Shown here in pieces: positions 12,826 to 41,490 of a stretch of DNA of 46,637 nucleotides. Source of the stretch: Armatimonadota bacterium (GTDB lineage: Bacteria > Armatimonadota > Armatimonadia > Armatimonadales > Armatimonadaceae); NCBI GenBank assembly GCA_043754515.1, contig JAYUUO010000086.1:1-46637 (forward strand), written 5' to 3'. The first letter of the stretch is position 1. Each line of letters starts with the position of its first letter. The notes beneath the pieces were generated by a model. The model was not told the origin of the DNA. It worked only from the letters and a program-made list of their open reading frames with translations, and searched no databases. Made by a program: the position numbers and the translations under genes.

Positions 12826-12945
12826 CGCGTTTCGCGCGGCTAATAGCCCGCCTCGTTGCAAGGGAACGCTCCGCCGTGCTATCATCACTTATCGGTCGTC
12901 GCCCGCCGTGTCGCCTTACGAGGAACAAGGAGTTTCCCCCAACTA

Positions 12946-15642
12946 ATGAAACACTCATCTACGCCCGTGACCCGCCTACCGCTGGCTGGTTTCTGTTCCG
13001 CGCTGATCACGCTCGGCATCCTGCCGACCGGAGCCGTATTCGCCGCCGTCCCCCTTTTACCCGGAGTTCTGCGCGTTTCCGCCGCGCCCGCCCTGATCGC
13101 CGCTGATGACAGCGCGAATGTTGACCCGGATTATCTGTATTTGCAGGCGTTGACTCAGCAGTCGGGCCGGTACCGGACCGCCGATGGGAGCAACTACCGC
13201 CGCGCGATCAAACTGTACGACGAAGCCCTGAAGCGGCGGAAGAACTTCTACGACGCGTTATATAACAAGGCAATCTGCTACTATCAACTGAAAAAGTACG
13301 ACGACTCTATCACACAGTCGAGCCGACACATCGGACTGCGCCCCGACATCATGCAGGCGTACTTGATCCGGGCGCAAGCCTACATCCAGAAGAAAGAATT
13401 CGATCCGGCCCTGAATGACTTGAACATGGTCGAGAAGAAGCGCCCCGATCTGATGGACTACCGTCTGCGCGGGAAGATCTACTACGCCCGCGAGGCGTAT
13501 CCCAAAGCCATCCCCGACTTCGAGAAATACGTCGCCAACAACAAGGACCGGCAGGGGCGCATCAACCTTTCCGCGATCGGCGCTTATCTGGATCTCGGCG
13601 ACGCGTACACGAAGGTGAGCGACCCCCAGAAGTCGGTGGCCGCGTACGGCAACTACATCTCGTCCTACCCAGACCCCGCCGTCGCCTGGGAGTTCCGGGG
13701 TGACAAGGAGTACGACAACCTGCCGTACGCGCTGGACAAGCGCGGCTCGGCTTACCTTGACGTCGCCCGCAAAGACGGCGACGCGAGCGCGCCGGAACTG
13801 GCGAAGGCAGAGGCCGACTTCCGCCGGTACACGGAGCTAGCACCGCAGTCGCCGGTCGGGTTCATCGGGCTGGGTAACGTGTCACTCCTGAAGCGGCAGT
13901 GGAGTCAGGCGGTTCAGACGCTGGAGAAGGCAGTCAGCCTCACCGGGGGGGCGGACGACACCGCGCTCGCCGCGCTGGGCGAGGCGCGCCGGTTACAGGC
14001 GGTTGACGGGGCGGGCACCGGTAGCAGTTCCGCGGGCGCGGAGGCGGTTGCCCTTGAGCGGTCCGCCTCCGAGTTTTCGGGTGCCCTGCTCAAAAACCCC
14101 AACAACACCCTCGCGTTGCGCGGTCGGGGGCTTGCGAACGCGAACCCGTCCGTCGGCAAGTACGCGGAGGCGGCAGGGGACTTCACCAGACTGCTCGCGG
14201 TGCTCCCGGCGGGCGATCCCGGAATCGCCGACGCATACTTCAACCGAGCCACCGTGTATCTGAACCAGACGCCGCCCGCCTACGACAAGGCGGTCCCCGA
14301 CTTCACGGCGGCGATTAGCGCGGACCAGAAGAACACCCGCGCTTACATCGGGCGCGGCGACGCCTACGCGAAACTGGGACAGTACCCCCAGGCGATTCAG
14401 GATTACGATGTGGTCGTGAACGGTGCCGGTGTGGACGACGCCTCGAAACTGAATGCGCGCCGCAACCGCGCCTACTCCTACATGCAGGTGACGCCGAAGC
14501 GGATAGACGAAGCGATCACGGACTTCACAGCGTACTTGCAGGCGAACCCTCAGGATAAAACCGTCGCCGACGCCCTGTTCAACGCACAACTTTCGGGCGA
14601 CGCGCCGAAAAAACTGACCGCGCTCAATGACCGCCTTAAGACCAGCCCGAACGACGCGCCGACGTACCTGCTACGCGCTTCAGTCTATGACTCGCTCAAG
14701 CGGTACGACGAGGCGATAGCGGACTACAAGAAAGTGACGATGCTGGACACACGCAATGCGAAGGCGTTCCAGAACCTAGCTTTCGACTACACCCAGAAAG
14801 GGTTCAGTGATCCGGCGAACGTGGACGGGGCGATCGTCGCGAACACCGGTTTGATCGCTTTGGAACCCACCAACGCAGTTTACCTGTTGGCTCGCGGCGA
14901 CCTGTACGGCGTCAAAAAGCAGTATCAGGAAGCGTCCGCCGACTACAAGAAGGCACTGGCGCAACTACCCGCGGGCGACGCCCGCCGCGCGGATGTCCGG
15001 TATCTGGTCGCGAACCTCGACCTCGCCTCCGGGAACAAGGCGGTCGCGAAGCAGGACTTCGACGCCTACTTCGCCGACGCGCAACCCGGCCACCCTAAGT
15101 ATGCCGAGGCTCTAGTACAGCGCGGCGACCTCCTTCGCGGGGACAAGAACTACGCCGGAGCCATCACGGATTACTCGAAGTATCTGACGGCGGTGCCCCG
15201 CGACGTGAAGGTATTGAAGGTGCGCGGCCAATCTTACCTGGATAGTGGCGATGAGGCGAAGGCACTCGCAGACTTCGAGGCGGCAGCCGCTACTACTCCG
15301 GACGCCGAAGCACTAACCCTCGCGGGTTCCCTGTACTACACACAGGCCGGGAAACTGGCTTCCAGCGATCCGGACAAGGCCATCCCCCTTTACAAGAAGG
15401 CGATTGACTACGCGAACCGAGCCAGCGGCGCGGACAACACCTACGCGGGTGCCTACTACTTTAAGGGGCTCGCGCTCGCGGAGGACGCGGACATTGATAA
15501 CCTGACACCCGCCGCGCAGAAGGCACAGCGACAGGACGCGCTCGCGCTCCTAGTCAAGTTCGTCCAACTCGCGCCGGACAACCCGCAGACACCGAACGCG
15601 AAAGCAGTCGCCGCGAAATTAACTAAAGTGATCGGCGGATAG
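12946..15642 (+). CDS. Secreted multi-TPR protein (about 900 aa)
   Basis: AAGGAG RBS, signal peptide and many TPR units (AYFNRA, AYIGRGDAY, AIADY). Confidence 0.92.
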   Translation: MKHSSTPVTRLPLAGFCSALITLGILPTGAVFAAVPLLPGVLRVSAAPALIAADDSANVDPDYLYLQALTQQSGRYRTADGSNYRRAIKLYDEALKRRKNFYDALYNKAICYYQLKKYDDSITQSSRHIGLRPDIMQAYLIRAQAYIQKKEFDPALNDLNMVEKKRPDLMDYRLRGKIYYAREAYPKAIPDFEKYVANNKDRQGRINLSAIGAYLDLGDAYTKVSDPQKSVAAYGNYISSYPDPAVAWEFRGDKEYDNLPYALDKRGSAYLDVARKDGDASAPELAKAEADFRRYTELAPQSPVGFIGLGNVSLLKRQWSQAVQTLEKAVSLTGGADDTALAALGEARRLQAVDGAGTGSSSAGAEAVALERSASEFSGALLKNPNNTLALRGRGLANANPSVGKYAEAAGDFTRLLAVLPAGDPGIADAYFNRATVYLNQTPPAYDKAVPDFTAAISADQKNTRAYIGRGDAYAKLGQYPQAIQDYDVVVNGAGVDDASKLNARRNRAYSYMQVTPKRIDEAITDFTAYLQANPQDKTVADALFNAQLSGDAPKKLTALNDRLKTSPNDAPTYLLRASVYDSLKRYDEAIADYKKVTMLDTRNAKAFQNLAFDYTQKGFSDPANVDGAIVANTGLIALEPTNAVYLLARGDLYGVKKQYQEASADYKKALAQLPAGDARRADVRYLVANLDLASGNKAVAKQDFDAYFADAQPGHPKYAEALVQRGDLLRGDKNYAGAITDYSKYLTAVPRDVKVLKVRGQSYLDSGDEAKALADFEAAAATTPDAEALTLAGSLYYTQAGKLASSDPDKAIPLYKKAIDYANRASGADNTYAGAYYFKGLALAEDADIDNLTPAAQKAQRQDALALLVKFVQLAPDNPQTPNAKAVAAKLTKVIGG

Positions 15643-15689: not shown

Positions 15690-15876
15690 AACAGGTTTCT
15701 GAGTCGTTGCTTGATTAATGTGGGCAGAGCCACTTTCCGGGGTGGCCAATATCACACCACATCGGTGGAAAAATGCCGGTTTGTTCGCCTATAATATACC
15801 GGCAATCGCCGCACAACCTAGCTTGATACGCGCTCCGTCGGGGATCCCCCCGTCAGCGCAGGAGATAAGACATTTC

Positions 15877-18399
15877 ATGTTGCCGTTGAACCGTATTTCT
15901 CGCGCGGGTAACGCCCCGCTAACCACGTTACTGACTGCCTTCGGTGCCGCGATCATCTTCGCCGGGACGTCCGGCGGCGCATGGGCACACCCGCTGTTAC
16001 CCGGTACCACCGTCATTCCATCCGGCCTTCTCGTCGGACAGGCCGGGACCGAAGCCGACGCCGAAGCGGCGGTCGCGGCGGGTGACCCCGCGAAAGCGAT
16101 CAGCCTTTATTCTTCAATGATCCAGGCGACGCCGAAGAAGAACAAGTTGTACCTCGGGCGCGGTATCGCCTACTTCAAGGCCAAACAGTACGACAAGGCG
16201 GCGGGCGATTTCGGGCAGTTCATCACGCTCCGCCCCGCCCTGATCGAGGGCTATCTCAACCGCGCCTACGCCTATAAAGAACTCGGCAAGGCGGGCGAAG
16301 GTCTCGCGGATTTGGCCAAAGTGCAGTCGCTAGATGCCGACAAGGTGGACGAGAAACTGCGCGGCGATCTGTATCTGGTTAAAAAAGACTACGCGAGCGC
16401 GATCGGATCGTACAACAAGGTCGGTGCCAAGGGGGGGGAGAGTGGCGCGATAGCGTTCCTGCTGATCGGCGACGCCTACGCGGCTCAGAACGACGCCGCG
16501 AACGCGATCACCAGCTACAGCAAGGGCATCGCGGGCGCGCCGAAGAACCCATATGGTTACGCACAACGCGGCAGGCTTTATGTCAAGGATGCGAAGTATG
16601 CCCCCGCTATCAAGGATTTGACGCAGTACATCGCGTTGTCACCGGGCGAGTCGTACGGCTACTATCTGCGCGGCCTCGCCAACGTATCCCTGAAAACGCC
16701 CGAAGGGTACGCCGCCGCGAAAAGCGACCTGACGAGGTATCTGACGCTGGAGAGAGACCCGGTAGCCAACCTCGGCGGCGTCAAGTTGCTGGCCGTCGCG
16801 CAGGCACAGACCGGCGACGTGAAAGGCTCGATAGACTCGTACGGCAAGATCATCGCCGCCGACAAAAAGAACGGCGACGCGACGTTCCAACGCGGCATGG
16901 CATACATGACCCTCAAAGACTATCAGAACGCCATCAAGGACTTCCAGACCTACACTACGGCGTTCGGCGGCGGGCCGAACGCCGGGGACGCGGCGTACAA
17001 CCTCGGCACCGCTTATCTCAACACGAAGGATTACGAAAAGGCGGCACCCGCTTACACGGCGGCTGTCAAGGCGAACGGCAAAGACACCGCGTCGTATTAT
17101 GGGCGGCTCGTCGCCTACTACTCGCTCAAGGAATACGAGAAGGCCATCCCCGACGCGGACGCGGTGATCAGCACGGGCGACCCTAAGTCCGATGAAGTAG
17201 CTGACGCGTACCTGAAGCAGGGTTCCGCCTATAGCGAGCTTGCCAAGTCGAAGAAGGACAAGAGCCTGGGTGTCAAGGCAATCGCCGCGATGAAAAAATA
17301 CATCGCGCTCAAGCCGAAAGACACGGCGAACGCGCAGTTTTACCGCGACCTTGTGACCCTGTATAGCGACCCCGCAAACCTGATCATCGAACTGACCAAG
17401 ATGCTGACACCGCCGCCGACGGACGCGAAAGCCGCCGCCGACATTTATTACAACCGGGGTGCCGCGTACGCGTCAAACAAAGACTACGCGAAGGCCGTAG
17501 CCGACTTTACGAAGGTCACCGCACTCACCCCGAACGATAAGGACGTCTACATCACGCTCGCGCAGACGCAATTCGTGGCAAGCGATATAGACGGCGCGAT
17601 CGCATCCTACACCAAGGCGATCGCGCTTAACCCGGATAAGGCGGAACTGGTCGCCGCGCGCGCGGACTTGTATATCGGCAAAGGGGATCAGGCGTCTTTC
17701 GCGAAAGCCGACGCCGACCTGACCGCCTACGAAGCGAAGGCAGGCAACAAGGTGGAGCCTCTTATTTTGCTTTCCCACGCCCAAATCAAGCGTGCCCTAG
17801 GCAAGACCGACGCGGCGATAGCCCTGTATCTACGCCATCAGGCGGTGGAGAAAGACCCGGTACAACTCGCGCAGTCCACCAAGGAATTGGGCGGGGTTTA
17901 CTTCTTCAAGCCGGACTATCCGAACGCGATCAAGACATACACCGAGTTCCTAAAGAACAACAAGGATGCCGGAGTGTTGGTCAACCGGGCGACCGCGTAC
18001 CGGCTGACGAAGGACGTTGACAAGGCGATGGCGGACGCGAACGCCGCGCTCGCGGTGAAGCCAGGCAACGCGGCGGCACTGACCGAGCGCGGCCTGATCA
18101 ACAACAAGATCGGCGACAACGTCGGTGACGCGGACCCGGACAAGGCGGGTGCCGCTTGGGACGCGGCGATCGCGGACAGCGACAAGGCGATCGCGGCGAA
18201 CCCGAAGGTAGCACTGGCCTACTACTGCAAGGGCTTCGCCGCTTATAAGAACGCCGGCACCCTCGGCAAAGGCGACGCGAAGACATATAACCCCATCGCG
18301 CTCGACGCCCTGACCAAGTTCCTGGCGACCACGACGCCGACCGACCCGCTACGCAAATCGGCGCAGGACGCGATCGCGGGAATTAAATCCGGCAACTAA
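15877..18399 (+). CDS. Secreted multi-TPR protein, paralog of 12946..15642
   Basis: GGAG RBS, signal peptide (AWA-HPLLPG) and tandem TPRs; TATAAT near 15790. Confidence 0.92.
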   Translation: MLPLNRISRAGNAPLTTLLTAFGAAIIFAGTSGGAWAHPLLPGTTVIPSGLLVGQAGTEADAEAAVAAGDPAKAISLYSSMIQATPKKNKLYLGRGIAYFKAKQYDKAAGDFGQFITLRPALIEGYLNRAYAYKELGKAGEGLADLAKVQSLDADKVDEKLRGDLYLVKKDYASAIGSYNKVGAKGGESGAIAFLLIGDAYAAQNDAANAITSYSKGIAGAPKNPYGYAQRGRLYVKDAKYAPAIKDLTQYIALSPGESYGYYLRGLANVSLKTPEGYAAAKSDLTRYLTLERDPVANLGGVKLLAVAQAQTGDVKGSIDSYGKIIAADKKNGDATFQRGMAYMTLKDYQNAIKDFQTYTTAFGGGPNAGDAAYNLGTAYLNTKDYEKAAPAYTAAVKANGKDTASYYGRLVAYYSLKEYEKAIPDADAVISTGDPKSDEVADAYLKQGSAYSELAKSKKDKSLGVKAIAAMKKYIALKPKDTANAQFYRDLVTLYSDPANLIIELTKMLTPPPTDAKAAADIYYNRGAAYASNKDYAKAVADFTKVTALTPNDKDVYITLAQTQFVASDIDGAIASYTKAIALNPDKAELVAARADLYIGKGDQASFAKADADLTAYEAKAGNKVEPLILLSHAQIKRALGKTDAAIALYLRHQAVEKDPVQLAQSTKELGGVYFFKPDYPNAIKTYTEFLKNNKDAGVLVNRATAYRLTKDVDKAMADANAALAVKPGNAAALTERGLINNKIGDNVGDADPDKAGAAWDAAIADSDKAIAANPKVALAYYCKGFAAYKNAGTLGKGDAKTYNPIALDALTKFLATTTPTDPLRKSAQDAIAGIKSGN

Positions 18400-18500: not shown

Positions 18501-18586
18501 GCCCCCCGCGTGCGCGACGTGGGGGGACTGTTTAATACTATGGCATTCCGCTATACCCTCGCCCCCCGCGTGCGCGGCGCGGGGTA
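18501..18586. repeat. Two direct copies of a GC-rich palindromic unit, 60 bp apart
   Basis: GCCCCCCGCGTGCGCGACGTGGGGGG at 18501 and GCCCCCCGCGTGCGCGGCGCGGGG at 18561. Confidence 0.6.
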
Positions 18587-18653
18587 CATCGCACGGCAGA
18601 GCGTTTGAGCGATAATTTAGCCATCCCGAACTTTTCGTGTTAGAATGTATACC

Positions 18654-19622
18654 GTGGCACTGAACGCTCAAATTGACGAATCCCCGCCAGATCTCACCCA
18701 CGGTGGTCGCGGGCGACACTGGGGCGTGACCGAGTTTAAGCAATTTTTTCACGACGAGAGGCACTGGCTCCTGCTGATCGTGCCCCTCTTGATTAGTCTT
18801 TTCGGGCCAATACAGTGGCTGGCGCAACAGTGGAGCATGTCTAGCGACGCGCTCGGGTTTCAGCCGTTCGTCCCGCTCGGCGTGGGTTACCTAATTTGGG
18901 CGGAGCGCGACGCGACCGCTTCCACTTATCACGGCCTCGCAAGCATCTACCCGGAAGGACACAGTTCGCGACGCGGGACGCCTTTCATCGCCTACATAGG
19001 TTGCGCGATCCTCTTCGTCTCGTACATAACCACGATCGGCATGATCGCGGTGGTCGGGTTTTGGGTTTGCGTCATCGGCATCCTCCTCCACGTTTACGGG
19101 TTTACCGTGCTGAGGACGCTGTGGCGACCTTTCTTGTTCGCGGCTACCATGGTTCCGATCCCCGGTAGTATCATAGACGCGGCGACCAGCCGCCTACAAC
19201 TCGGTTGCGCGACCGCGGCGGGTGCCCTCCTGAAGGTAATCTATCCGCAGACGCACACGCTGGGCAACTTCATCACCGTCGGTCAGTACACGGCGCAGGT
19301 AAGCGGGCCTTGTAGCGGCGTCGGCATATTGCTTCCGGTGTTGGTGTTGACCCTGTTCCTCGCGCTGTTGCGCAAGATCCGATGGCCGCTCGCGCTGATT
19401 CTGCTCGGTTGTTCGGCGGGCATCGCGCTATTCATGAACACGATCCGCATCGTCATCATGGGGCTGATCGGCGTTCAGAATCCCGGACTCGCGAGCAACC
19501 TGCACGACGCGAACTCCTGGGTTTTCACTGCTCTGGCGTTTTACCTGACCTTTCTGCTAGCGCGACGTATCGGGCCGCGCACGCAATACGTCGAAGACGA
19601 TTTACCACCGGACGAAGAGTAA
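18654..19622 (+). CDS. Exosortase/archaeosortase family protein with intact catalytic residues
   Basis: Multi-TM protein; VSGPCSG (Cys), MNTIRI (Arg), NLHD (His), F..MVPIP. Start is ATG 18645 or GTG 18654 (7 nt after TG-n-TAGAAT). Confidence 0.92.
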   Translation: MALNAQIDESPPDLTHGGRGRHWGVTEFKQFFHDERHWLLLIVPLLISLFGPIQWLAQQWSMSSDALGFQPFVPLGVGYLIWAERDATASTYHGLASIYPEGHSSRRGTPFIAYIGCAILFVSYITTIGMIAVVGFWVCVIGILLHVYGFTVLRTLWRPFLFAATMVPIPGSIIDAATSRLQLGCATAAGALLKVIYPQTHTLGNFITVGQYTAQVSGPCSGVGILLPVLVLTLFLALLRKIRWPLALILLGCSAGIALFMNTIRIVIMGLIGVQNPGLASNLHDANSWVFTALAFYLTFLLARRIGPRTQYVEDDLPPDEE

Positions 19623-19626
19623 ACAC

Positions 19627-20343
19627 ATGACCCCTTACCAAATGAAGCCGTTCATTCATCTCGGTGCCGTGATCGTGCTGATGGCGATCCTCGGCATCTT
19701 CACGGGAACCCGTATGCAACAACGGGGACAGTGGCTCCCCGTCGTGCCTAACGAGATCGGCCCGTGGACAGCCGTAGATGTACCCCTGGAATCGACCACG
19801 GTGAAACTTTTAGGCGCACCGAAAACGCTCGGTAGACAGTACAAAAACCCGTTCGACGAGCCGGTTGACGCGCACGTGATCGCCGGTGCCTCGTTCGACG
19901 CGTATCACGAACCAGCGATGTGCATGAGCGGCTACGGGTTCACGGTCACCGCGCAGATATTCCCGGAGGTATTCGGCAAGGGCAACACAGCGCGCGCTCT
20001 GGTGCTCAAGCATGAGGACAGCGGCGTGCGCGTGTTGATGCTGTTCTGGGTGCAGTATGAGGACGGGAGCACCTCCGGCATCGGCGATATGCACGCCTAT
20101 GCCGACCTCAATCAGCGGATGAAGGTCGGGTGGAGCACCGTGATTAACAACAGGCAGTGTGTCATAATCCGTGCTTACACGCGCGTAGCCGCCGGGGATG
20201 CGAACAGCGCGCAGGCGCGGCGGAACCTGTACGATGTTTCACGCGGTTTGTACGAAGGCATCAAGCGCGACGGCGAGATGTGGCGTGCGCACGCGAATGG
20301 CGTGGCGGCCGTGGGCCGAGACCGGAGCGACGATGCGTCTTAA
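19627..20343 (+). CDS. Exosortase-associated EpsI family protein
   Basis: N-terminal TM helix; PNEIGPW, RQYKNP, YHEPAMCMSGYG (HxPxxC) and LMLFWVQ; follows an exosortase. Confidence 0.85.
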   Translation: MTPYQMKPFIHLGAVIVLMAILGIFTGTRMQQRGQWLPVVPNEIGPWTAVDVPLESTTVKLLGAPKTLGRQYKNPFDEPVDAHVIAGASFDAYHEPAMCMSGYGFTVTAQIFPEVFGKGNTARALVLKHEDSGVRVLMLFWVQYEDGSTSGIGDMHAYADLNQRMKVGWSTVINNRQCVIIRAYTRVAAGDANSAQARRNLYDVSRGLYEGIKRDGEMWRAHANGVAAVGRDRSDDAS

Positions 20344-21040
20344 CATGAATCGTCTAGTGCCGATGGTAGTCGTACCCCTGGCATTGCTCCCCGTCGGTTG
20401 CTCAAGTGGTTTGAAGGGACGCGGTCAGGAGATCGACCTCATATCCGAAACCCCGTCACATGCGACGCCGCGGCCGACCGGTTCGGGCCCACTCTGGCCA
20501 CTGACACCGGGGAGGGCATGGCAGACGCTGACCCTCCGCCCGGATCAGCCCAATACGCCGAGCGAGATCCGGGTCACCGGCCCGTACCGTTCGGCAGACG
20601 GGCGGGCCGGGGAGATGGTGCAGTCCTACCGCGCGGGGAAGTTGTTCCGCGTCGAGGTGTTCCAGATAGACCCGAAGGGCAACATGAAAATGTTGGCACT
20701 GGGCGAATCGCCCGACAAGTTGCTGGTCTTCACGCCCTCCGTCCCGTTCCTGAACGCCCCCGTCAAGGAGGGCGAGGCGATGCAGTGGCGTGGAACCGCG
20801 CGTCTGAAAAACCAGGACTATCCGGCGACCGCCTACCACCGGATGAGCGCGGTGGACACGGTGAAGACCCCGTTCGATTCGTTGCTCGCCTACCGACTCG
20901 ACTGCATTATATCCCTTATGAATGGTACTCAGCGGATTGATTATCCGGGTGTCTACTGGCTCGTCCCCGGCAAAGGCATCGCCCAACGCCGACTCGCCGA
21001 CCAAGGCAAGGTCGCGCTCGAAGTCATCACCCGGTTCTAA
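20333..21040 (+). CDS. Lipoprotein (beta-rich, DUF3108/TapB-like)
   Basis: Lipobox PVGC; VKTPF..AYRL and YWLVPGKGI motifs; overlaps the epsI stop; paralog of 23009..23725. Confidence 0.78.
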   Translation: MRLNMNRLVPMVVVPLALLPVGCSSGLKGRGQEIDLISETPSHATPRPTGSGPLWPLTPGRAWQTLTLRPDQPNTPSEIRVTGPYRSADGRAGEMVQSYRAGKLFRVEVFQIDPKGNMKMLALGESPDKLLVFTPSVPFLNAPVKEGEAMQWRGTARLKNQDYPATAYHRMSAVDTVKTPFDSLLAYRLDCIISLMNGTQRIDYPGVYWLVPGKGIAQRRLADQGKVALEVITRF

Positions 21041-21070
21041 CCTTTATCGCCTCACAAAGTCGCTCACGCC

Positions 21071-22234
21071 ATGACGCCCCTAAACACCGCCCCTGACATC
21101 CCCCGCGCCCCCGACGTTGCCGCCCCCGACGCGCAACCGGGGAAACGCCCGCTATCGGGGCTTGCCTCCATCGGGGGGGGAATTATTGCCGTATTTCGGC
21201 GCAGCCCCGAATGGCTCGTGATCGTCTTCGCCTGGGTCGCGGCGGGGTTCATCCCGGCGTTCTGGTTTATGGGCGAGGACCACTGGTGGGTACAGTCCAC
21301 TTCGCCTCTGGTCTTCGAGCCGTTCGTGCCGCTCTTGTGTGCCGTGTTAATCTGGCAGGATCGCGAGCGGCTGATGGACGCGTGGCAACGGACGCCGCGC
21401 AACAAGCGAATCGGCTCACCGGTTTTGCTCTGGGTCGGTTGCGCCTTGATTTTGGTCTCGCACTTAATTCACGTGCTGACGGTGGCGGCAGCGGGTCTGC
21501 TGATCGCGGCGGCGGGGGTCGTTTATCTGGGCTACGGGCCAATCGTACTCATGCAAGCACGGCGCGCCCTGCTGTTCGGACTGCTTCTCATCCCTCCCCC
21601 GGTGAAGCCGATTGATGTGGCATCGAAACTGTGTAGCAGATCAGCCTGGAACATCCTTTACACCATTCTGCTGAAGCTAAAGCGCATCCCCCCGCGTGGA
21701 CAGAGCGACGATATCTTCACCCTGATGGTTAGCGGTCGTGTGTATCAGGCGGAAAACACACAGTTGTCCGCGATCTTCATCACCGGGTTTGTATTGCTTT
21801 TCTTCGCGGTATGGCGTCGGAGGCGCTTCGGGGAGGCCGTGGTGAGCATGGCGTTCGGCGGCCTGATCGCCGCTGTACTCACAGTCCTGGTACCCTTGAT
21901 CGCGCTACTGCTACCGGTGACACCGCTCACGGATATGCTGGTACACATCCACCCGCTCCTCGTCGCGGCAGCGGCGGTCGGCATCACCGTCGGCGTGAGC
22001 GCACGGCTCGGGGCGTGGTCCTCCGCCCTCCTGGAACGCTCCCACGCGCTGGGGAGAATATCGCAGAGTGCCCAGAAGCTTACGGACCGGGCCGCCTCGG
22101 GCGTCGCGGCGGGCATGGGCGGTAGCATCGGGCGGGCGAGACGCGGCGCGGGGAAGCACACCGAGGCCGCCATGGATAAGTTCTTCGCCGCAATCGTCAA
22201 GCCGTTCAAGCGCAAGCGGCGTGACCGCTGGTAG
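21071..22234 (+). CDS. Degenerate exosortase paralog lacking the catalytic Cys and Arg
   Basis: PLVFEPFVPLLCAVLIWQDRE aligns with ALGFQPFVPLGVGYLIWAERD, and LLIPPP with MVPIP. The CSG and NxxR motifs are absent. The ORF is intact. Confidence 0.75.
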   Translation: MTPLNTAPDIPRAPDVAAPDAQPGKRPLSGLASIGGGIIAVFRRSPEWLVIVFAWVAAGFIPAFWFMGEDHWWVQSTSPLVFEPFVPLLCAVLIWQDRERLMDAWQRTPRNKRIGSPVLLWVGCALILVSHLIHVLTVAAAGLLIAAAGVVYLGYGPIVLMQARRALLFGLLLIPPPVKPIDVASKLCSRSAWNILYTILLKLKRIPPRGQSDDIFTLMVSGRVYQAENTQLSAIFITGFVLLFFAVWRRRRFGEAVVSMAFGGLIAAVLTVLVPLIALLLPVTPLTDMLVHIHPLLVAAAAVGITVGVSARLGAWSSALLERSHALGRISQSAQKLTDRAASGVAAGMGGSIGRARRGAGKHTEAAMDKFFAAIVKPFKRKRRDRW

Positions 22235-22253
22235 CCACGAAAGAGATACCCTC

Positions 22254-23012
22254 ATGCTCGATACCGAAGTCATCACCCCCGTCATTCTGCTGAGTTTCGT
22301 CGTCTCCGCGCTCGCCCTGGCACTCGCGGTCATCGGATTGTTCGTTAACCGTCGTCGGTTCCAACTGGCGGCACGTGTCGCGATCCCGCTCGCCGCCGTC
22401 GCCTTCGCGGGAACCTTCGCGACCTACCGCTTCCGCCACGCCGGTTCCTGGCTCCCCCCGCTCCCAGACGCGGTGGGCGACTGGAAGGCTATTGATACCC
22501 CAGTCCCCAAAGACACGCTGGCACTGCTCGGCTTCCCGATGGCCCGCGGACACGAGTATCAGAACCCGTTCGGAGAAATGGTGTATTCGTCTGCGGTGTG
22601 CGCGGGGCCGTTCGAGAACTATCATGACCCGACCGTGTGCGTGGTCGGAAACGGCTTCGCGCTGACCGCCAAGAAAACGCTTCCGATGGGCGTCGGAAAC
22701 TGGCGCGTCCGGGCGATGATCTTCAAGCGCTCGATAGGCAACGGCGACCTGCGGATCATGATGTACTATTGGACACAGACTCGCGCGGGGCACACGGCGA
22801 CCGAGGCGCGCATGGGCAACTTCCAGGACATGTCCGCGCGCCTGCAGACCGGCTACAGTTCCGTGGTACAGGGCGAGCAGAACGTAATCCTGCGCATCTA
22901 CGCGATAGTCCCGCCCGACGACCCGGACGGGATCCAGGCGCAACGCAACCTCAACGAAGTGTGCCACGCCACTTATGAGATGTTACTGAAAGACGGGGCG
23001 AAGAAACAATGA
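22254..23012 (+). CDS. Second EpsI family protein
   Basis: WLPPLPDAVGDW, EYQNPF, YHDPTVCVVGNG, MYYWTQ and QAQRNL; two N-terminal TM helices. Confidence 0.85.
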   Translation: MLDTEVITPVILLSFVVSALALALAVIGLFVNRRRFQLAARVAIPLAAVAFAGTFATYRFRHAGSWLPPLPDAVGDWKAIDTPVPKDTLALLGFPMARGHEYQNPFGEMVYSSAVCAGPFENYHDPTVCVVGNGFALTAKKTLPMGVGNWRVRAMIFKRSIGNGDLRIMMYYWTQTRAGHTATEARMGNFQDMSARLQTGYSSVVQGEQNVILRIYAIVPPDDPDGIQAQRNLNEVCHATYEMLLKDGAKKQ

Positions 23013-23725
23013 AACTCCGACAAACCTTTCCACGAATGTTGCTCCTGCTAATCCCGCTCGCCGCGCTGTTATCGGGTTGCGGATCGGACGGACGCGACGG
23101 CGGCGCGGACATGAAGTACCTGCGTACTCCCGATCCGGACGGGGACAAGAAAAAAGTGGTCGAGGATCGGGTCTCGCTCCTTTTCCCAACCGGCAAGGAT
23201 CGGGTCTGGCAGGTCGCGGTTCATGCCATGGGCACGAACACGCAGGAGACCGTGCGGGTAGATGTCCCGCACACGGTCGGGAAGTTGAAGGACGCCACCA
23301 CTCTGACCATGTACCAGAACAACAAGCCGTACCGGAGCGAGATGTTTTTAGTCAAGCCCGACGCGCTGTCGCTGGCCGCGGCGGGCGGTGCCGACAAAAT
23401 GGTGATGTCCCCGCCGATGGTGCTCCTGCGCAATGACTCCGCTGAAGGAGCGGAGTATAAGTGGGAGGGCGAGATTACTTTCAAAGGGGCGAAGGCCCCC
23501 GCGCAGGCTTACAGCCGCGTGTACGCCCCGCGCGAGGTGGACACGCCCGCCGGTAAGTTCAAGGCGTACCGCGTGGATACGTCGCTGACCACGATCATCG
23601 AAGGACACGCGGTCACGTTCCCCGCCTCGCGTTGGTTCGCCCCCGGTGTCGGCATCGTCCGCCAAACTTTCCGGGTCGGCAACGCCTCCGTGGAAAAAGA
23701 ACTGGTCTCATACAAGGGCGGGTAG
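23009..23725 (+). CDS. Lipoprotein (DUF3108/TapB-like), paralog of 20333..21040
   Basis: Lipobox LSGC; VDTPAGKFKAYRV and WFAPGVGIV; ATGA overlap with the second epsI. Confidence 0.8.
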   Translation: MKLRQTFPRMLLLLIPLAALLSGCGSDGRDGGADMKYLRTPDPDGDKKKVVEDRVSLLFPTGKDRVWQVAVHAMGTNTQETVRVDVPHTVGKLKDATTLTMYQNNKPYRSEMFLVKPDALSLAAAGGADKMVMSPPMVLLRNDSAEGAEYKWEGEITFKGAKAPAQAYSRVYAPREVDTPAGKFKAYRVDTSLTTIIEGHAVTFPASRWFAPGVGIVRQTFRVGNASVEKELVSYKGG

Positions 23726-23737
23726 CCGAGGCACCCG

Positions 23738-24424
23738 ATGCTATCCGCCTCCCTGGCCCCCCCTAGGCGAATGCCCTGGGGCCCCTACGTCCTACCGATG
23801 ACGTTGTTTCTGGTCGCGACGTTTGTGGAAGGCCATCTGCCCAAGCACTGGTACCCTCTCGCCTATACGGCGAAGGCGGTGCTGGTCACTGCGATGCTGG
23901 TGGTCGGTTGCCGCACCTGGAAAAACGAGTTGCGCGGCGGCGGCGGGGCTATCTTCTTCGGCATACTGGCGGGGCTGGCCGGTCTGCCGCTCTGGCTCGC
24001 GGTGGACGCCGTGACGCCGCACCTGTCCTTCCTGGGCACTCGTGCCGCGTACAACCCGTTCCTGGAGATCCCCGACGCCCCGGCGCGTTGGGCGTTCCTC
24101 GCGGCCCGCTTCTTCGGGCTTGCGGTGATGGTACCAGTGATGGAAGAGGTATTCTGGCGTTCGTTCCTGCTCCGCTTCGTGACAGATCAGGACCGATGGA
24201 ATAGCCTACCGATCGGGGCGTTCTCGCTCCCCGCGCTGGCGGTGGTCTGCACCCTCTTCGGCGTCGCGCACCCGGAGTATCTGGCGGCGGTCGTGTTCGC
24301 GCTCCTCATGGCGGGGTTACTTCGGCACACGAAAAGCCTTCTCTCCTGTGTCGTCGCGCACGGCGTCACCAACCTATCCCTCGGCATCTATGTTCTGATG
24401 ACCGGCGATTGGCACTACTGGTAA
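23738..24424 (+). CDS. CAAX prenyl protease-related (CPBP) intramembrane protease, exosortase-associated type
   Basis: VPVMEEVFWRSFL, FGVAH and HGVTN motifs; the N-terminal PYVLP and C-terminal W..W are typical of the PEP-CTERM-linked subfamily. Confidence 0.9.
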   Translation: MLSASLAPPRRMPWGPYVLPMTLFLVATFVEGHLPKHWYPLAYTAKAVLVTAMLVVGCRTWKNELRGGGGAIFFGILAGLAGLPLWLAVDAVTPHLSFLGTRAAYNPFLEIPDAPARWAFLAARFFGLAVMVPVMEEVFWRSFLLRFVTDQDRWNSLPIGAFSLPALAVVCTLFGVAHPEYLAAVVFALLMAGLLRHTKSLLSCVVAHGVTNLSLGIYVLMTGDWHYW

Positions 24425-24450: not shown

Positions 24451-25722
24451 TCAAAGGACGAATCCGCCGCCGAGCAACTGATAAATCGCGAGAAGGAGCA
24501 ACACAAATGGCACCGCCAGAACAGATAGCCAGCGTACCGGCATTGCTCCGCCCTCGGGTCCGGGTGGACGCCTCGCCCATGCCAACCCAGTAACAACCGC
24601 CACTGGTAATAGCGCGGGCAAGAAGTACCGCCCCTGCGCCTGAAACACGGTGAGGATGAAACGTAGGTAGAACGGGAGCAGGAGCGGCACGGCGGGCGCG
24701 AACATGGCGATGACCCTGCGCGCCTCGTCACCGAGGTTCCCCCCCTTCGCCTGACGATACAGCGAGGCAAGCGACGTGAGAGGGATCGCAATCACGACGA
24801 GGAGCGGCAGTGCCGGGCCGGTGAAGTGATTGAAGGGCAGATCCGGACGGAGGAAATACCAGAACGTCGCGAAGGAGCGAACCCCGACCTGCCGTAGGTA
24901 GTCGGACGCCGACCAGTGCGCGAGGGCTTGTATATCGGTCGGCGAATAGTTAGGCCCCGTCAGGCGGTATATCTTCAGCGTCAGCGGATCGCCGTAAAGC
25001 ACCGTGTTGCGGATCAGCCAGGGCGACGCGACCGCGGTGCCGAGAAGAAGCGCGCCGACGCAGTAGCCCGCCGCTCGCGGGTAGGTCATTTTATCCCCGC
25101 GTACAGCCAGGAAGTAGGCGAGCGCGAACGCGGGGACGAGTTGAACCACAGACAATTTCGTCCACAACCCTAGCCCGAATAGCACACCGAGCCAGATCAT
25201 CGCTCGATTTGTCTGCCCGCGTAATACAACCGCCCCTAGCCGCCAGTAGATCGCCGCGCAGAGCAACGTGCTCAGTGCGTCGTTGTTTATCGCGCCGCCG
25301 AGTTGCGCCTGAACCGGCAGACATGCTACGAACGCTCCCGCGCCGATCGCAACCTCCCCGAGATCGGGGAACAGGTCGCGACAGGCGTGGAAAACTAACG
25401 CGACGGTCGCGAGTTGCAGAACGGCGGAGACGAGCCGCACGGCGGTTTCGTTGCCCCGCGTCGCCGCATAAACCGGTGCGCAAAGCAGATAATATAGCGG
25501 GGGCTGATGCGCCTCATCGCGGCTCGGTGCCCCCTCGGGAAGTTCGCCGCGCGGGACAAACCGCACCGGTCCCCGCGACTCGACCAGAAGCCGCAAATAG
25601 TCGCGGTGCGCATTCTCGTCCGGGTTATCCCCCACCGGGACGCGGAGCGCAAAGCATAAGGATAGCAGGAGCGACAGGGCGAGAAGCGCGAGCAGGGCGC
25701 GGCGGGAGAGAACGGGACTCAT
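24451..25722 (-). CDS. GT-C membrane glycosyltransferase (family 39/ArnT/DUF2142-like)
   Basis: NPDENAHRDY, HQPPLYY, INNDAL, LWTKLS, PWLIRN and QGRYFLP. Start placed 7 nt after TACAAT. Confidence 0.85.
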   Translation of the reverse strand: MSPVLSRRALLALLALSLLLSLCFALRVPVGDNPDENAHRDYLRLLVESRGPVRFVPRGELPEGAPSRDEAHQPPLYYLLCAPVYAATRGNETAVRLVSAVLQLATVALVFHACRDLFPDLGEVAIGAGAFVACLPVQAQLGGAINNDALSTLLCAAIYWRLGAVVLRGQTNRAMIWLGVLFGLGLWTKLSVVQLVPAFALAYFLAVRGDKMTYPRAAGYCVGALLLGTAVASPWLIRNTVLYGDPLTLKIYRLTGPNYSPTDIQALAHWSASDYLRQVGVRSFATFWYFLRPDLPFNHFTGPALPLLVVIAIPLTSLASLYRQAKGGNLGDEARRVIAMFAPAVPLLLPFYLRFILTVFQAQGRYFLPALLPVAVVTGLAWARRPPGPEGGAMPVRWLSVLAVPFVLLLLAIYQLLGGGFVL

Positions 25723-25799
25723 TAAGCCCATTGTACCGTCCCAACGCGGCGGCGGGAAATCTTCTCGCCGCCGGGCCACTCACGGCCAACGCGGAAAGA

Positions 25800-36521: not shown

Positions 36522-37970
36522 GTGGCTAACAGACCGAGCGGCGGAACATTTGTAGGGCTTGACATCGGCACCGCCAGTATAAAGGTGGTGCAGGTCAAGG
36601 GCGCGGGCGCGACCCTGGAAGTCACGGCACTCGGCGTCGCCGACACACCGCCGGGCACCATCCAGCAGGGTCTGGTCGCGGATGCCAAGACGCTAGGGGC
36701 CGCGATCAAGTCCCTGCTGACCAGAAGTGGCATTCGCTCCGGTCGGTGCGTGTCGGCGGCGTCCGGCAACGCGAGTGTCGTGGTACGCGTGATCGAGGTA
36801 CAGAAGATGACACCCAAGGAACTCGCGGAGACCATGAAGTGGGAGATCGAGCGGCATATCCCCTTCGCTGCGAACGACGTGGAGATGGGTTACCAGAAGA
36901 TTGACGACCCCCAGTCCGACGCCGACCCGAACAATCCCAACATGGAAGTGCTACTCGCGGTCGCGCAACGCGACATGGTCGCCGGGCACCTTAAAACCCT
37001 AGAGGCCGCCGGTCTCCAACCTTTCTCGATCGACGTCGAGCCGCTCGCCATCGGCCGCGCCCTGCTCGACCTCGATAACACCGGGCTGGCGTCGCGCAAC
37101 GTGGCGGTGATCAACATCGGCGCGGCGAACACGGACGTCGGTATTTACAAGAACGGAACGCTCCGCTTCCCGCGCGCCGTTCCCATTGCGGGCGATACGT
37201 TCACCCGAAACATCGCCGACCATCTCGGCATCAGCATGGATCAAGCCGAGGACGAGAAACGCCAGAACGCGTCGGTGATGATGGACGTGCTGGAATCGGC
37301 GCAAGCAACACCCGAGAATGGTCCCTTCGGAACGGAAAACTTCGGCGCGTCGCCCTTCGACGCGCCGGGCATCCCCCCGGCGAACCCGTTCGACACGGCA
37401 CCGACTCCGCTCGCGAACCCGTTCGCCGCGCCCGTGCCGAGCCCATTCGGCGGCCCAGTCGCCGCGTTCGACGCGCCGCCCGCGAATCCGTTCGGCGTGC
37501 CCCCGCCCAACCCATTCGGTTCCGACCCGGCAAGCTCCCTCGGCACCGCCCCCGATGGCGGCGCGGCGGCGTACGAGGCACCCGCCTCAAGCCCATTCGA
37601 TGCCCCGGTGGCGACGCCCGCGCCGGAGGACCCGAGAAGGCGGCGTCAGCGCGAGATATTCGACGCGTTGTTCCCCGTTCTCGGAGAACTCGCCGTCGAA
37701 GTGGGTCGTAGCGTAGACTTCTTCCGTTCGCGGTACCCGAGCGAGACGATTGATCAAGTGGTTTTATGCGGCGGTTCCGCGCAGATCCCGAACTTGGACA
37801 AGTTCTTCCAGCGCGAACTGGGAATCCCGACGCGGATCGCGAACCCGTTCCAATCGGTCCGCAACAGCAGTCGCCAAATAGACCCGATGGCACTCGAAAA
37901 GATGGCACCGATATTCGCCGTCGCGCTCGGCCTCGCCGCTCGAGACGCGGTGATCGGGTCGGACAAGTAA
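36522..37970 (+). CDS. pilM: Type IV pilus assembly protein PilM (with Pro/NPF-rich insertion)
   Basis: VGLDIGTASIK, WEIERHIPF, IDVEPLA, INIGAANT, LCGGSA and AVALGLA. Confidence 0.93.
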   Translation: MANRPSGGTFVGLDIGTASIKVVQVKGAGATLEVTALGVADTPPGTIQQGLVADAKTLGAAIKSLLTRSGIRSGRCVSAASGNASVVVRVIEVQKMTPKELAETMKWEIERHIPFAANDVEMGYQKIDDPQSDADPNNPNMEVLLAVAQRDMVAGHLKTLEAAGLQPFSIDVEPLAIGRALLDLDNTGLASRNVAVINIGAANTDVGIYKNGTLRFPRAVPIAGDTFTRNIADHLGISMDQAEDEKRQNASVMMDVLESAQATPENGPFGTENFGASPFDAPGIPPANPFDTAPTPLANPFAAPVPSPFGGPVAAFDAPPANPFGVPPPNPFGSDPASSLGTAPDGGAAAYEAPASSPFDAPVATPAPEDPRRRRQREIFDALFPVLGELAVEVGRSVDFFRSRYPSETIDQVVLCGGSAQIPNLDKFFQRELGIPTRIANPFQSVRNSSRQIDPMALEKMAPIFAVALGLAARDAVIGSDK

Positions 37971-38085
37971 AATAGTTGAAGTCAAGTAGCCGATTCGCGG
38001 TCAAAACCGGTGAGCGGGTTTCGCGCATCCCCCTGTTCGCCACTGACGCTCGGCACTCACCCAAGGGAACTACACGGAAAAGTCT

Positions 38086-38868
38086 ATGTCGGCACTAAGA
38101 ATAAACCTACTACCGGCGTCCATCGCGGAAAGACGGCAGACGCAACAGGCACTCGTCGCGTGCGTCGCCCTCTCCGCGTTGCTGGTCGGCGCGTCGCTCG
38201 CCTATGCCGCGAGTCAACAAGTGAAAGCGAAGGCCGCGGAGACCGAAGCGGACGCGATGGAGACGCAGGCGACAGGGAAGGCGAAGGAAGTCTCCGATAT
38301 CAAGGCCGAGGCCAGCAAGCTCAGGGCGCAGATTCAGCCCATCAGCGACCGGGTTGACTTCGTCAAACAGGTCAAGTTTTACAACACCTGGGTACAGAAG
38401 ATCTACCGACGCGCCGCACTCTACACCGACAGCCGGGTCGAGTACTCCTCAATGGCAGTGAACGGCGGCACGCTCGCGATGACGGGATATGTGCAGAGCG
38501 TGGACGATCTGGCGCGCTACCTGATCACGTTCTATGGTAACCCGGACGTCACGGCGGTGTCGGTGTCAGGCCCTCCGGGTTGGCAACGGCCGTCGCAGGT
38601 GTCCATCAACCCCCTCCAGCAGAGCGCGACCGCGCCCAAAGGGTTTAGTTTTTCGGTGAACGCCACGTTATATAAGGCACTCCAGAGACCGGCTCTGCCG
38701 ACCTCGCTGGGAGGCGACCCGGTGGCCACGGAAGCACCGCCTAAGGGAGCGCCCACGGCGACGACAACGACCGGGGGCAGTGGCAAAAAAGGGGCTGGCC
38801 CGACGACGCCCCCCACCGCCCCTAGCGTCACCGCAAGCCCTGGCGGCCCGAACGACGGCGGACAGTGA
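38086..38868 (+). CDS. pilN: PilN-like protein
   Basis: RINLLP PilM-binding motif, TM helix and coiled coil; follows pilM. Confidence 0.85.
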   Translation: MSALRINLLPASIAERRQTQQALVACVALSALLVGASLAYAASQQVKAKAAETEADAMETQATGKAKEVSDIKAEASKLRAQIQPISDRVDFVKQVKFYNTWVQKIYRRAALYTDSRVEYSSMAVNGGTLAMTGYVQSVDDLARYLITFYGNPDVTAVSVSGPPGWQRPSQVSINPLQQSATAPKGFSFSVNATLYKALQRPALPTSLGGDPVATEAPPKGAPTATTTTGGSGKKGAGPTTPPTAPSVTASPGGPNDGGQ

Positions 38869-38895
38869 TGCCCAAACGAGCGAAGGATCTATAGC

Positions 38896-39699
38896 GTGTT
38901 AGCAAAAATTAAATGGTTCCAGGTAGTGATCATCCTGGGTGTACTTACGGCACTCGCGGTCGCCGGCATATACATCTTCATGATCAAGCCGCTCAACGAG
39001 CGATTGGACGCGGCGAAAAGTAAACTGGATGTGCAGACTGCCGCGCTCGAGACGGCGAAAAAAGACAAGCCGAAGCAGGAACAGGATCGCGTCAAGGCGC
39101 GACAGGAAGTCGCCGACGCGCGACGAGACTGGGCCCGCTACGACCGCGCCCTGATGCCGAATATTGACTTGTCAAACCGCTTCGCGGCAACGAAGCAACT
39201 ATGGAACGAGCAACTACGCGTCCTCGGACCCAAAGTGCTTAAGTTCCTTTACGACGACCGCTCCATACACGTGGTCACCGAGACTATTTCCATCCCGACC
39301 CCAGTCGGCGACCCGAACGCGGTGGTGAAAAAGGTGTTCGTCTACCCACTAGGCAACATTACTGTTGCGGGTAACTTCGAGCAGGTTTTACGGCACACGG
39401 AGCGTTGGAACAAGTTCAGCCGCCTCGCTCTCGTGGATGGTTTAACCCTTTCGGGCAACTCGCCGACGCTCACCGGCACCTACACCGTGACGTTGTACGA
39501 GATTACGCACTTCGACAAGGTCGGCACGGCGATCCCGCAAGCGGCCCCAGCAACCGGCGGTGGCGGGTTCCCCGGCGGTGGCGGGTTCCCCGGTGGCGGT
39601 CCCGGTGGCCCTCCGCAAGGGTTCCAGGGGGCACCCTTCATTCCGCCCGGCGCGAACGGGCCACCGCCAGGGATTAGCGGCGGCGGACAGGAGAGATAA
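38896..39699 (+). CDS. pilO: PilO-like protein
   Basis: TM helix, coiled coil and ITVAGNFEQVLRH...RLALVDGLTL; operon position. Confidence 0.72.
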   Translation: MLAKIKWFQVVIILGVLTALAVAGIYIFMIKPLNERLDAAKSKLDVQTAALETAKKDKPKQEQDRVKARQEVADARRDWARYDRALMPNIDLSNRFAATKQLWNEQLRVLGPKVLKFLYDDRSIHVVTETISIPTPVGDPNAVVKKVFVYPLGNITVAGNFEQVLRHTERWNKFSRLALVDGLTLSGNSPTLTGTYTVTLYEITHFDKVGTAIPQAAPATGGGGFPGGGGFPGGGPGGPPQGFQGAPFIPPGANGPPPGISGGGQER

Positions 39700-39702
39700 A
39701 GC

Positions 39703-40644
39703 ATGAGTACACCAACCATCGAAACGAAAAAACCGGGGGTGCCACGCGCGGCACTCCTAGGCGGGGCGTTACTGTTTCTGGCGGGACTCGCCTACGCCGG
39801 ATTCTCGCTATCAGGTAAGCCGGCAACGGATACCACCGTGGCGGACGCGCCCCCGCTACCCCCAGTGTCGCGAAAGGCACCCGTGAGAGCCAAGGCAGGT
39901 AAACCTGCGGCGGTAGCGAAGCGCATCGTAGCGACCCCAGCCGACTCCGCGCTCGCGGCGGCGAAGGCACAGGCACTCCAGGCGGGCGGCACCCCGGGCG
40001 GGCGCATACTCTATGACACCTCGTTCGACAACGTGCCCAAGAGTCTGGGAGGCTCGGACGCTCGGGTATTCCCGGTGACGCCGAGTCCCGCGACAGATAA
40101 CGGCGGCAAAGTACGTCCCATCGTTCTCGGTAGACTCCCCAACGGGTTACGGGGCGATCCATTCGTGTCGCGCCTGATCGTGCCCCTCCCACGCGAGTTC
40201 GCCTATACCCTCGCGGTGCCGATCCGGTTGGCACGCCAGCCGAGACCCATCGTGGTAAGAGGACCAGATATACCTGCCGACATCGCTCTCGGGCCGCTCC
40301 CATATATCCCGCGCCGCGTGGCGGGCTTTCTGGAGTTCGGCGGCGTGTCGGCGATCCTGGAGACGGGCAACTTCGGCTCCGGGGAGATCAACATCGTTCA
40401 GCCCGGTTCGAGGGTCGCGAGTGGCGATGCGGCTATCGGCCCACTCACCGTCGAGAGTATAAGTAGCACCGAGGTAGTGCTACGCTCGGATGACAAGCGC
40501 CGAACCAGGGTCGCGCTCTCAGGCGTGCCGGGCGGCATCGCGGTTCCCTCCCGTGGTTCGCAGGGAGCTCCCCGGGGCGGTCCGCCCCCGGGATTCAATG
40601 GTGGAGGTGGCAACGGCGGGGGCGGGGCGATGGGTGCCGACTAG
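39703..40644 (+). CDS. PilP-like bitopic protein
   Basis: TM helix, RGDPF motif and a C-terminal beta domain (SAILE...IVQPG...VESISSTEVVL); lies between pilO and the secretin genes. Confidence 0.55.
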   Translation: MSTPTIETKKPGVPRAALLGGALLFLAGLAYAGFSLSGKPATDTTVADAPPLPPVSRKAPVRAKAGKPAAVAKRIVATPADSALAAAKAQALQAGGTPGGRILYDTSFDNVPKSLGGSDARVFPVTPSPATDNGGKVRPIVLGRLPNGLRGDPFVSRLIVPLPREFAYTLAVPIRLARQPRPIVVRGPDIPADIALGPLPYIPRRVAGFLEFGGVSAILETGNFGSGEINIVQPGSRVASGDAAIGPLTVESISSTEVVLRSDDKRRTRVALSGVPGGIAVPSRGSQGAPRGGPPPGFNGGGGNGGGGAMGAD

Positions 40645-40704
40645 GTGGGTTGCCCGTCCCCGATGTTAATATGATTCGGCGCAAGCCCTTGAGTAATGGC
40701 TTAG

Positions 40705-41439: not shown

Positions 41440-41490
41440 CGCGGGCGGCCAGTAACTTCAATGATGGTAAAGAAAACAGTGGAGGACGGA

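Follow-up and report, generated by a model that had tools for sequence, protein, structure and literature searches.

Contig JAYUUO010000086.1 of an Armatimonadota bacterium (assembly GCA_043754515.1) was analysed over a stretch of 46,637 nucleotides, referred to here as the window, in which a three-gene module of exosortase, EpsI protein and lipoprotein is present twice in tandem and is followed by a gene for a CAAX-type protease. The reading favoured here, at a probability of roughly 0.5 and based on sequence comparison, is that the first module would act as a sortase for proteins carrying a variant C-terminal tail, PAPP-CTERM, and that the second exosortase, Xrt2, would be a non-catalytic membrane anchor for the EpsI-2–Lp2 pair encoded behind it. 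The family to which the bacterium belongs provides a natural experiment, in which the enzyme, the EpsI motif and the substrate tail have been kept or lost together several times. The genomes, contigs, loci, genera and families compared are denoted G, C, L, g and f; G000 is the window's own genome and f1 its Armatimonadota family, all 32 genomes of which were searched and their loci read.

The locus comprises seven intact open reading frames (ORFs) on the + strand at 18645-24424, in the order exosortase, EpsI, lipoprotein, exosortase, EpsI, lipoprotein and TIGR03008 protease, with intergenic gaps of +4, -11, +30, +19, -4 and +12 bases. This agrees with a preliminary description of the window, which had reported an intact, tightly spaced tandem doubling of the three genes; the start that it gave, 18654, falls on an in-frame GTG three codons after the start called here. 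The principal features are as follows.

18645-19622, + strand: Xrt1, exosortase with intact triad (PF09721, 129.2 bits, cut-off 25.7; below the cut-off of every named Xrt subfamily)
19311-19313, 19446-19448 and 19503-19505, + strand: codons of the Xrt1 triad, Cys223, Arg268 and His287, placed by alignment
19627-20343, + strand: EpsI-1 (DUF3485; PF11984, 37.2 bits, cut-off 26.1), with His94-Glu-Pro96-x-x-Cys99 at 19906-19923
20333-21040, + strand: Lp1, lipoprotein with lipobox Cys23, a paralog of Lp2 (27% identity, E 1e-18)
21071-22234, + strand: Xrt2, pseudo-exosortase with N229, V274 and V291 at the triad columns (PF09721, 35.3 bits, cut-off 25.7)
22254-23012, + strand: EpsI-2 (PF11984, 39.9 bits, cut-off 26.1), with His124-Asp-Pro-x-x-Cys129 at 22623-22640
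23009-23725, + strand: Lp2, DUF3108-like lipoprotein with lipobox Cys24 (PF21347, 30 bits, cut-off 27)
23738-24424, + strand: TIGR03008 CPBP/CAAX-type intramembrane protease (144 bits, cut-off 81.05), the only copy in G000

The profile searches that the preliminary description had proposed thus place PF09721 twice, PF11984 twice and TIGR03008 above their cut-offs. One sequencing run, probably of DNA, aligns along the stretch in short segments with 95-99+% identity.

Catalytic residues of the exosortases and the EpsI motif

Xrt1 contains the Cys-x-Gly, Asn-x-x-Arg and His motifs of exosortases (C223, N265/R268, H287), and the triad is kept in all 30 canonical exosortases aligned with it. In Xrt2, the cysteines (90, 124 and 188) all lie away from the nucleophile column, and the PF09721 match spans the N-terminal half only. 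The full Cys-Arg-His triad is found in 0/26 Xrt2 orthologs, across which the nucleophile column holds no conserved residue (N, Y, G, I, T, L, C, Q, A, S, M). Similarly, among metagenomic representatives (50% identity, sorted by best BLAST hit of at least 100 bits), the full triad is present in 0/46 Xrt2-like, 6/41 Xrt1-like and 12/16 single-module-like sequences. The structural model of Xrt2 (predicted local distance difference test, pLDDT, 86.5) retains the helices and the hairpin preceding the lost cysteine, and a Foldseek search of the PDB with this model gave no match at E 0.001. Furthermore, Xrt2 has a conserved C-terminal extension (21960-22234), consisting of a long helix and a basic tail, which is absent from Xrt1 and from the single-module enzymes. 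Judged by these residues, Xrt2 is a conserved pseudo-enzyme. In G011 and G014 (L043:9262-10431 and L048:4778-6184) Xrt1 is dead and Xrt2 has Cys and Arg, so that the roles of the two may have been swapped in these genomes.

Of the 25 genomes in which Xrt1 itself was seen, 6 (G000, G001, G002, G004, G015 and G016) retain its cysteine and the other 19 lack it. The usual state of the family is dead plus dead, and the live Xrt1 of the window is a minority state. The preliminary description had proposed the pairing of an active with a dead exosortase; this pairing is present in the window but is not a conserved feature, and a fixed pair of enzyme and pseudo-enzyme is unsupported because Xrt1 is so often without its cysteine as well. 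The archaeosortase ArtA is a homolog of Xrt1 that differs in being archaeal and in having PGF-CTERM substrates; according to the accessible part of PMC9263693, mutagenesis shows Cys173, Arg214 and Arg253 of ArtA to be critical and lipid is attached after cleavage, which supports reading the loss of the cysteine as a loss of activity. The same text mentions no pair of EpsI and lipoprotein for ArtA. Neither Xrt1 nor Xrt2 reaches a curated NCBIfam cut-off for any of the named subfamilies XrtA-XrtZ and Crt: Xrt1 scores 54 against 105.55 for TIGR02602, 102.5 against 400 for XrtD and 90.7 against 425 for XrtW, and Xrt2 scores lower still. Prediction of a complex between Xrt1 (30-315) and Xrt2 (38-387), with alignments given, scored 0.00 twice with the controls unfolded, and speaks neither for nor against binding.

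A His-x-Pro-x-x-Cys motif is found in 4/4 canonical and 7/8 single-module EpsI proteins. In EpsI-1, its histidine and cysteine are both kept in 6/6 genomes with the Xrt1 cysteine and in 0/19 without it. Partial losses concern the histidine only in G003 and G005 and the cysteine only in G011. In the tree, the losses in G003 and G005 are nested among intact relatives, indicating at least three separate loss events. EpsI-2, the most conserved gene of the cassette, has H-D-P-x-x-C in 29/29 orthologs, and since the motif cysteine is the only cysteine in 7 of the 20 that were aligned, it does not serve an internal disulfide. On the evidence of these alignments, the motif shows the pattern of a functional site linked to the chemistry of the exosortase, and EpsI-2 appears to be “live” beside a dead enzyme. 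Fusions, of EpsI-1 and Lp1 into one protein in G012 and G019 and of Xrt2 and EpsI-2 in G029, suggest a chain of enzyme, EpsI and lipoprotein. Both EpsI proteins miss the TIGR02914 cut-off of 42.8 (EpsI-1 17.2 bits, EpsI-2 23.7 bits), the EpsI profile found no solved relative (best E 0.89), and an atlas search with EpsI-2 returned only unnamed clusters, without PF11984, at 0.90 or below.

Single modules and PAPP-CTERM tails

Eight single modules with an enzyme of the same subfamily were found (one each in G005, G006, G011, G014, G016 and G323, two in G209), with intact triads in all. A gene for a secreted protein with a variant tail adjoins seven of them, and the eighth module is cut by a contig end. 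The tails of these neighbours are tripartite, with the motif TPAPP, TPAPA, VPAPP, SPAPP, VPLPP or VPGP. Such a neighbouring variant-tail gene is a criterion for dedicated exosortase systems in the accessible part of bioRxiv 2023.06.07.544157. In G000, there is one protein with a PAPP tail, a choice-of-anchor-E protein at G000:C156:8227-9087. Read individually, the PAPP tails have the tripartite layout of a motif, a hydrophobic helix and a basic cluster at the C-terminus, and they lack Pro-Glu-Pro, Ala standing in the place of Glu. Two of them miss the TIGR02595 cut-off of 16 (12.9 and 13.3 bits) and the G000 tail gives no match to this model; none of 7 variant-tail proteins tested reaches the cut-off of any NCBIfam tail model.

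The distribution of the tail was determined with tail profiles, scoring at most 150 candidates per genome, followed by a reading of the matches. Used alone, a DNA pattern for the tail gave too much noise, as controls matched equally often, and its matches were therefore read one by one. Tails of the [VT]PAPP type were found in 10/10 f1 genomes that have an intact enzyme of the subfamily, be it Xrt1 or that of a single module, and in 0/22 others, so that the scan for a novel C-terminal sorting signal suggested in the preliminary description has yielded one. The positive genomes have one (G000, G005, G011), two (G004, G014, G015, G016), four (G006) or five (G001, G002) such tails, one further strong hit in each of G001 and G002 lying outside the tails read. 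In the 22 negative genomes, the matches that were read either had an ordinary PEP tail or lacked a tail; in G003, a genome of the window's own genus that is 82% complete, the Xrt1 cysteine is changed to Ala and no tail was found. As Xrt1 is the only intact subfamily member found in G000, G001, G002, G004 and G015, the tail is tied to Xrt1 in these genomes.

Spread, selection and lipoproteins of the doubled cassette

The doubled cassette or pieces of it are found in 29/32 f1 genomes. The synteny survey proposed in the preliminary description bears out the layout: in 14 genomes from 7 genera, a single contig carries the six genes in order; the same order is interrupted by contig ends in 7 further genomes. 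Genus g5 includes four genomes with five genes, Lp2 being absent, and three more with pieces, and G014 has its two modules on separate contigs with flanks present on both. The exceptions are G006, with a single module only, G009, with a frameshifted module, and G031 (61% complete), in which none was found; a PF09721 match above the cut-off is present in 32/32. An EpsI-2 query of a sample of 401 genomes of the phylum found matches only in f1 and in two f27 genomes, and the doubled form thus looks confined to f1 among the genomes searched. G000 also has a canonical exosortase-EpsI pair on contig C41 (exosortase TIGR02602, 151 bits) and 13 PEP-CTERM matches over the Pfam cut-off.

The two modules share 28% identity over 151 amino acids between the exosortases, 36% between the EpsI proteins and 27% between the lipoproteins. 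Xrt2 forms one clade across genera (support 100/98), as do EpsI-1 and EpsI-2 (97 and 99, in a quick tree), indicating that the duplication predates the genera. Xrt1 does not form one clade: its Cys-less rows group with Xrt2, possibly as long branches, in a tree that left out three partial Xrt1 rows and most canonical rows. Among unsaturated pairs, the ratio of nonsynonymous to synonymous substitutions (dN/dS, Nei-Gojobori) lies at 0.09-0.14 in Cys-less Xrt1 and at 0.17-0.20 in Xrt2; the EpsI genes have 0.06-0.16 and the lipoprotein genes 0.07-0.24. For pairs with G000, which are near saturation (pS 0.63-0.75), it is 0.07-0.24 where computable. The parts of the cassette, including the second module, are under purifying selection, and the second module is not decaying. 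The earlier view that the copies are highly diverged and the duplication old and retained is thus upheld (27-36% identity, Xrt2 and EpsI clades across genera, dN/dS about 0.06-0.24).

The third member of each module is a lipoprotein. Lp1 has no Pfam match at E 0.1, its homology being the 27% identity to Lp2. The atlas neighbours of Lp2 are DUF3108 clusters at 0.92-0.94, and its model (pLDDT 87.5) is an open antiparallel beta-sheet resembling YmcC, with Z 12.0 against 4fvs (root-mean-square deviation 4.3, 175 aligned) and Z 10.3 against YmcC 2in5 (deviation 3.7, 150 aligned); Foldseek matches to DUF3108-like/YmcC-like structures have E 2e-7 and 4e-4. The wider lipoprotein family occurs in 97/401 genomes of the phylum. 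The preliminary description had taken the lipoprotein to be a fixed component, and had regarded a lack of linkage to exosortases elsewhere as telling against its view: the present clade is near-fixed in the f1 module, where it is linked to exosortases, but outside f1 the wider family is largely unlinked, with an exosortase in the fetched flank at 1 of the 40 loci read. In f11 and f34, L218-L237 contain arrays of 2-4 tandem DUF3108-like lipoprotein genes without an exosortase, and in G187 such an array is flanked by a SecDF-head gene and rodA.

A single TIGR03008 gene is present in 28/32 f1 genomes, and in 27/27 relatives having it the gene lies on another contig than the cassette. The protease cap that had been described is therefore real in the window but peculiar to G000, and the protease was rejected as a fixed member of the cassette.

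Proposed sorting route, alternatives and neighbouring genes

In the sorting route proposed here, Xrt1 would recognise [VT]PAPP-CTERM proteins, in G000 the choice-of-anchor-E protein on C156, and probably cleaves the tail via Cys223, with ordinary PEP-CTERM proteins going to the housekeeping exosortase on C41. In the accessible part of Haft 2006 (PMC1569441), the acceptor of the cleaved protein is an “unknown periplasmic nucleophile” and EpsI is without known function. The histidine and cysteine of EpsI may well join the chemistry, most simply as a periplasmic nucleophile that takes the cargo from the exosortase thioester, a suggestion that comes at even odds. More tentatively, the lipoprotein could receive the product or carry it towards the outer membrane. 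Xrt2, with about as much chance of being right as wrong, would hold EpsI-2 and Lp2, which would take cargo from an active exosortase in trans, this being Xrt1 in G000 and the housekeeping enzyme in genera with a dead Xrt1.

Several observations weigh against this route. The motif of EpsI-2 is kept beside a dead exosortase, which breaks the rule that the motif follows its partner and makes action in trans necessary; the frameshifted module of G009 combines a Cys-less enzyme with an EpsI that has both His and Cys; and Xrt2 of G011 (C-R-N) and G014 (C-R-Q) keeps Cys and Arg and may be active. Against LolA/LolB chains, Lp2 has Z 6-7.4, within the tool's stated background. Eight of the 10 positive genomes contributed to the training alignment of the tail profile (G004 and G015, both tail-positive, are outside it), the ceiling of 150 candidates per genome limited the scoring, and Xrt1 is off-contig in 5 of the 22 negatives. 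As the genomes are related, the counts overstate independence; at the level of genera they become 6/6 against 0/6, with a nominal p of 0.002. Lastly, xPAP tails without the second proline exist in family f8, which lies outside the genomes surveyed for the enzyme subfamily. In f8, the tails at L265, L268, L272, L276 and L278 read VPAPS, TPAPS, VPAPG and VPAPD, with up to six profile hits per genome.

A further reading, which we regard as possible but hold at less than even odds, takes EpsI to be the missing second sorting enzyme, whose His-x-Pro-x-x-Cys site would take over the cut protein from the exosortase cysteine and pass it to a lipoprotein carrier, with exosortases of this family turned into non-catalytic adaptors that direct the cargo of other exosortases to the EpsI-2/Lp2 line. 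As part of the same proposal, G000 would represent the ancestral condition, now rare, in which Xrt1 is live and has a PAPP-CTERM substrate of its own.

The main alternative, which is rather unlikely, is that the cassette is a non-proteolytic envelope scaffold or sensor, in which dead exosortases would associate with membrane helices or lipids and keep EpsI and GfcB-like lipoproteins in place. Such a scaffold would serve polysaccharide export or fasciclin display, the His/Asp/Cys of EpsI being a metal or redox site and the activity of Xrt1 a leftover. This notion is consistent with the lack of the cysteine from both exosortases in most genomes, and with the fasciclin, O-antigen-ligase-like and GT4 genes near the cassettes in six genera. 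The best characterised fold match of Lp2 is YmcC, which we take to be GfcB of group 4 capsule export. GfcB has been placed in an outer-membrane complex, as far as the accessible part of PMC8592465 goes. The scaffold leaves unexplained, however, why EpsI-1 loses His and Cys exactly alongside the loss of the Xrt1 cysteine, and the fasciclin gene, which has a conserved N-terminal motif and lies directly behind the cassette at 13 loci in six genera (with O-antigen-ligase-like and GT4 genes adjoining it in 8-9 loci), is not in this position in G000, nor in the g1, g6 and g10 loci; G000 also yielded no clear ortholog of the N-terminal part. As it is absent behind the window's cassette, fasciclin as a universal substrate is also unsupported. 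The fasciclin protein (L047:6523-7293, with orthologs at L042, L043, L045, L048, L054, L061-L065, L074 and L081) is marked by a conserved “Q-I/L-P” signal region at the N-terminus and by a second segment that is hydrophobic.

The preliminary description had suggested a heteromeric sorting machine of enzyme, pseudo-enzyme, two EpsI proteins and two lipoproteins; such an assembly as an obligate heteromer, with the CAAX protease included, is improbable. The tight operon spacing, the conserved six-gene order on one contig and the purifying selection on all parts would fit such an assembly, but Xrt1 is without its cysteine in 19/25 genomes, intact-triad single modules exist without an adjacent Xrt2, G014 has the modules unlinked, some g5 cassettes have no Lp2 behind EpsI-2, and the protease gene is elsewhere in all 27 relatives. 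Very improbable is the notion that Xrt2 still works as a protease through a shifted or different nucleophile and that its “dead” appearance is an alignment artefact. In genus g1 there is a gap in the column that follows the beta-hairpin, and besides the Cys and Arg of G011 and G014, a Cys lies within two columns of the nucleophile in 9/46 Xrt2-like representatives; against this, the nucleophile column is unconserved, the window's Xrt2 is also without the Arg and His, the hairpin-helix layout persists in the model at high confidence, and none of the 46 representatives has the full triad. That the second module is a decaying duplicate is refuted by dN/dS of 0.03-0.24 for Xrt2, EpsI-2 and Lp2 and by its conservation across genera, with intact frames in ten of them and with EpsI-2 so conserved, the frameshifts (G019 Xrt1, G004 EpsI-1, G009 module) occurring in single assemblies.

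Among known systems, the exosortase/EpsH-EpsI-PEP-CTERM system (PF09721, TIGR02602, PF11984, TIGR02914; accessible part of PMC1569441) shares with the window the membrane family, the triad seen in Xrt1, an EpsI adjacent to or fused with the enzyme, and a tripartite C-terminal tail on the likely substrates. It differs in that the window's cassette is doubled, with an Xrt2 lacking the triad, a lipoprotein as third member and PAPP rather than PEP, and in that the proteins of the window are below the TIGR02602 and TIGR02914 cut-offs and a separate canonical enzyme exists on C41. Dedicated subfamilies such as XrtD/VPLPA-CTERM, XrtW and XrtE/VPEID likewise match an enzyme to a variant tail whose gene is often next door, the criterion set out in the accessible part of bioRxiv 2023.06.07.544157. 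The highest NCBIfam scores here are to XrtD and XrtW, far under their cut-offs, the single modules reaching at best 147 against 400. The predicted fold of Lp2 is that of DUF3108-like/YmcC-like lipoproteins (PF21347; 4fvs, 3fzx, 2in5), whose other Armatimonadota members differ in forming the arrays without exosortase noted above, and the seventh gene is a full member of the TIGR03008 PEP-CTERM-associated CAAX proteases. In the literature searched, whose coverage left out most subscription papers, no description of this system was found. New here are the live Xrt1 state, PAPP-CTERM as a class of substrates, the form with a single module and the co-loss of three traits, namely enzyme cysteine, EpsI motif and tail. 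The fate of exosortase cargo after cleavage and the role of EpsI are open in the accessible parts of PMC1569441 and bioRxiv 2023.06.07.544157, and the co-loss points to one defined substrate and to testable residues (EpsI His94/Cys99 and His124/Cys129). The family further contributes PAPP-CTERM, a sorting signal so far without a name, and family-wide conserved pseudo-exosortases that current annotation labels as ordinary exosortases.

Two features before Xrt1 and the genes around the cassette complete the survey of the locus.

18618-18646, + strand: sigma-70-like promoter match before Xrt1, not above chance (1 found, 1.6 expected from shuffles)
18502-18526, + strand: 10-pair GC-rich hairpin between the tetratricopeptide repeat (TPR) genes and Xrt1, a possible terminator, weak (8 terminator-like sites found, 5.3 expected)

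The TPR genes are two tandem genes for proteins of about 900 amino acids (12856-15642 and 15718-18399), directly upstream on the same strand, with 29% identity between them and weak PrsT matches under the cut-off. They were rejected as fixed members of the cassette, as among the relatives' loci only that of G001 has one upstream. In g6 (L052, L053, L055 and L057-L059), 6/6 genomes have a canonical exosortase-EpsI fusion next to the cassette and in divergent orientation to it, with glycosyltransferase and non-ribosomal peptide synthetase/polyketide synthase-like genes downstream. Elsewhere in the window, an ORF of 930 amino acids at 1631-4423 (- strand) is without a Pfam match at E 0.001, a PMT-like membrane glycosyltransferase gene at 24451-25779 (- strand) converges with the end of the operon, and a run of genes from PilM-like to secretin, several of its members unassigned, at 36522-43140 (+ strand) is probably a type IV pilus or type II secretion cluster.

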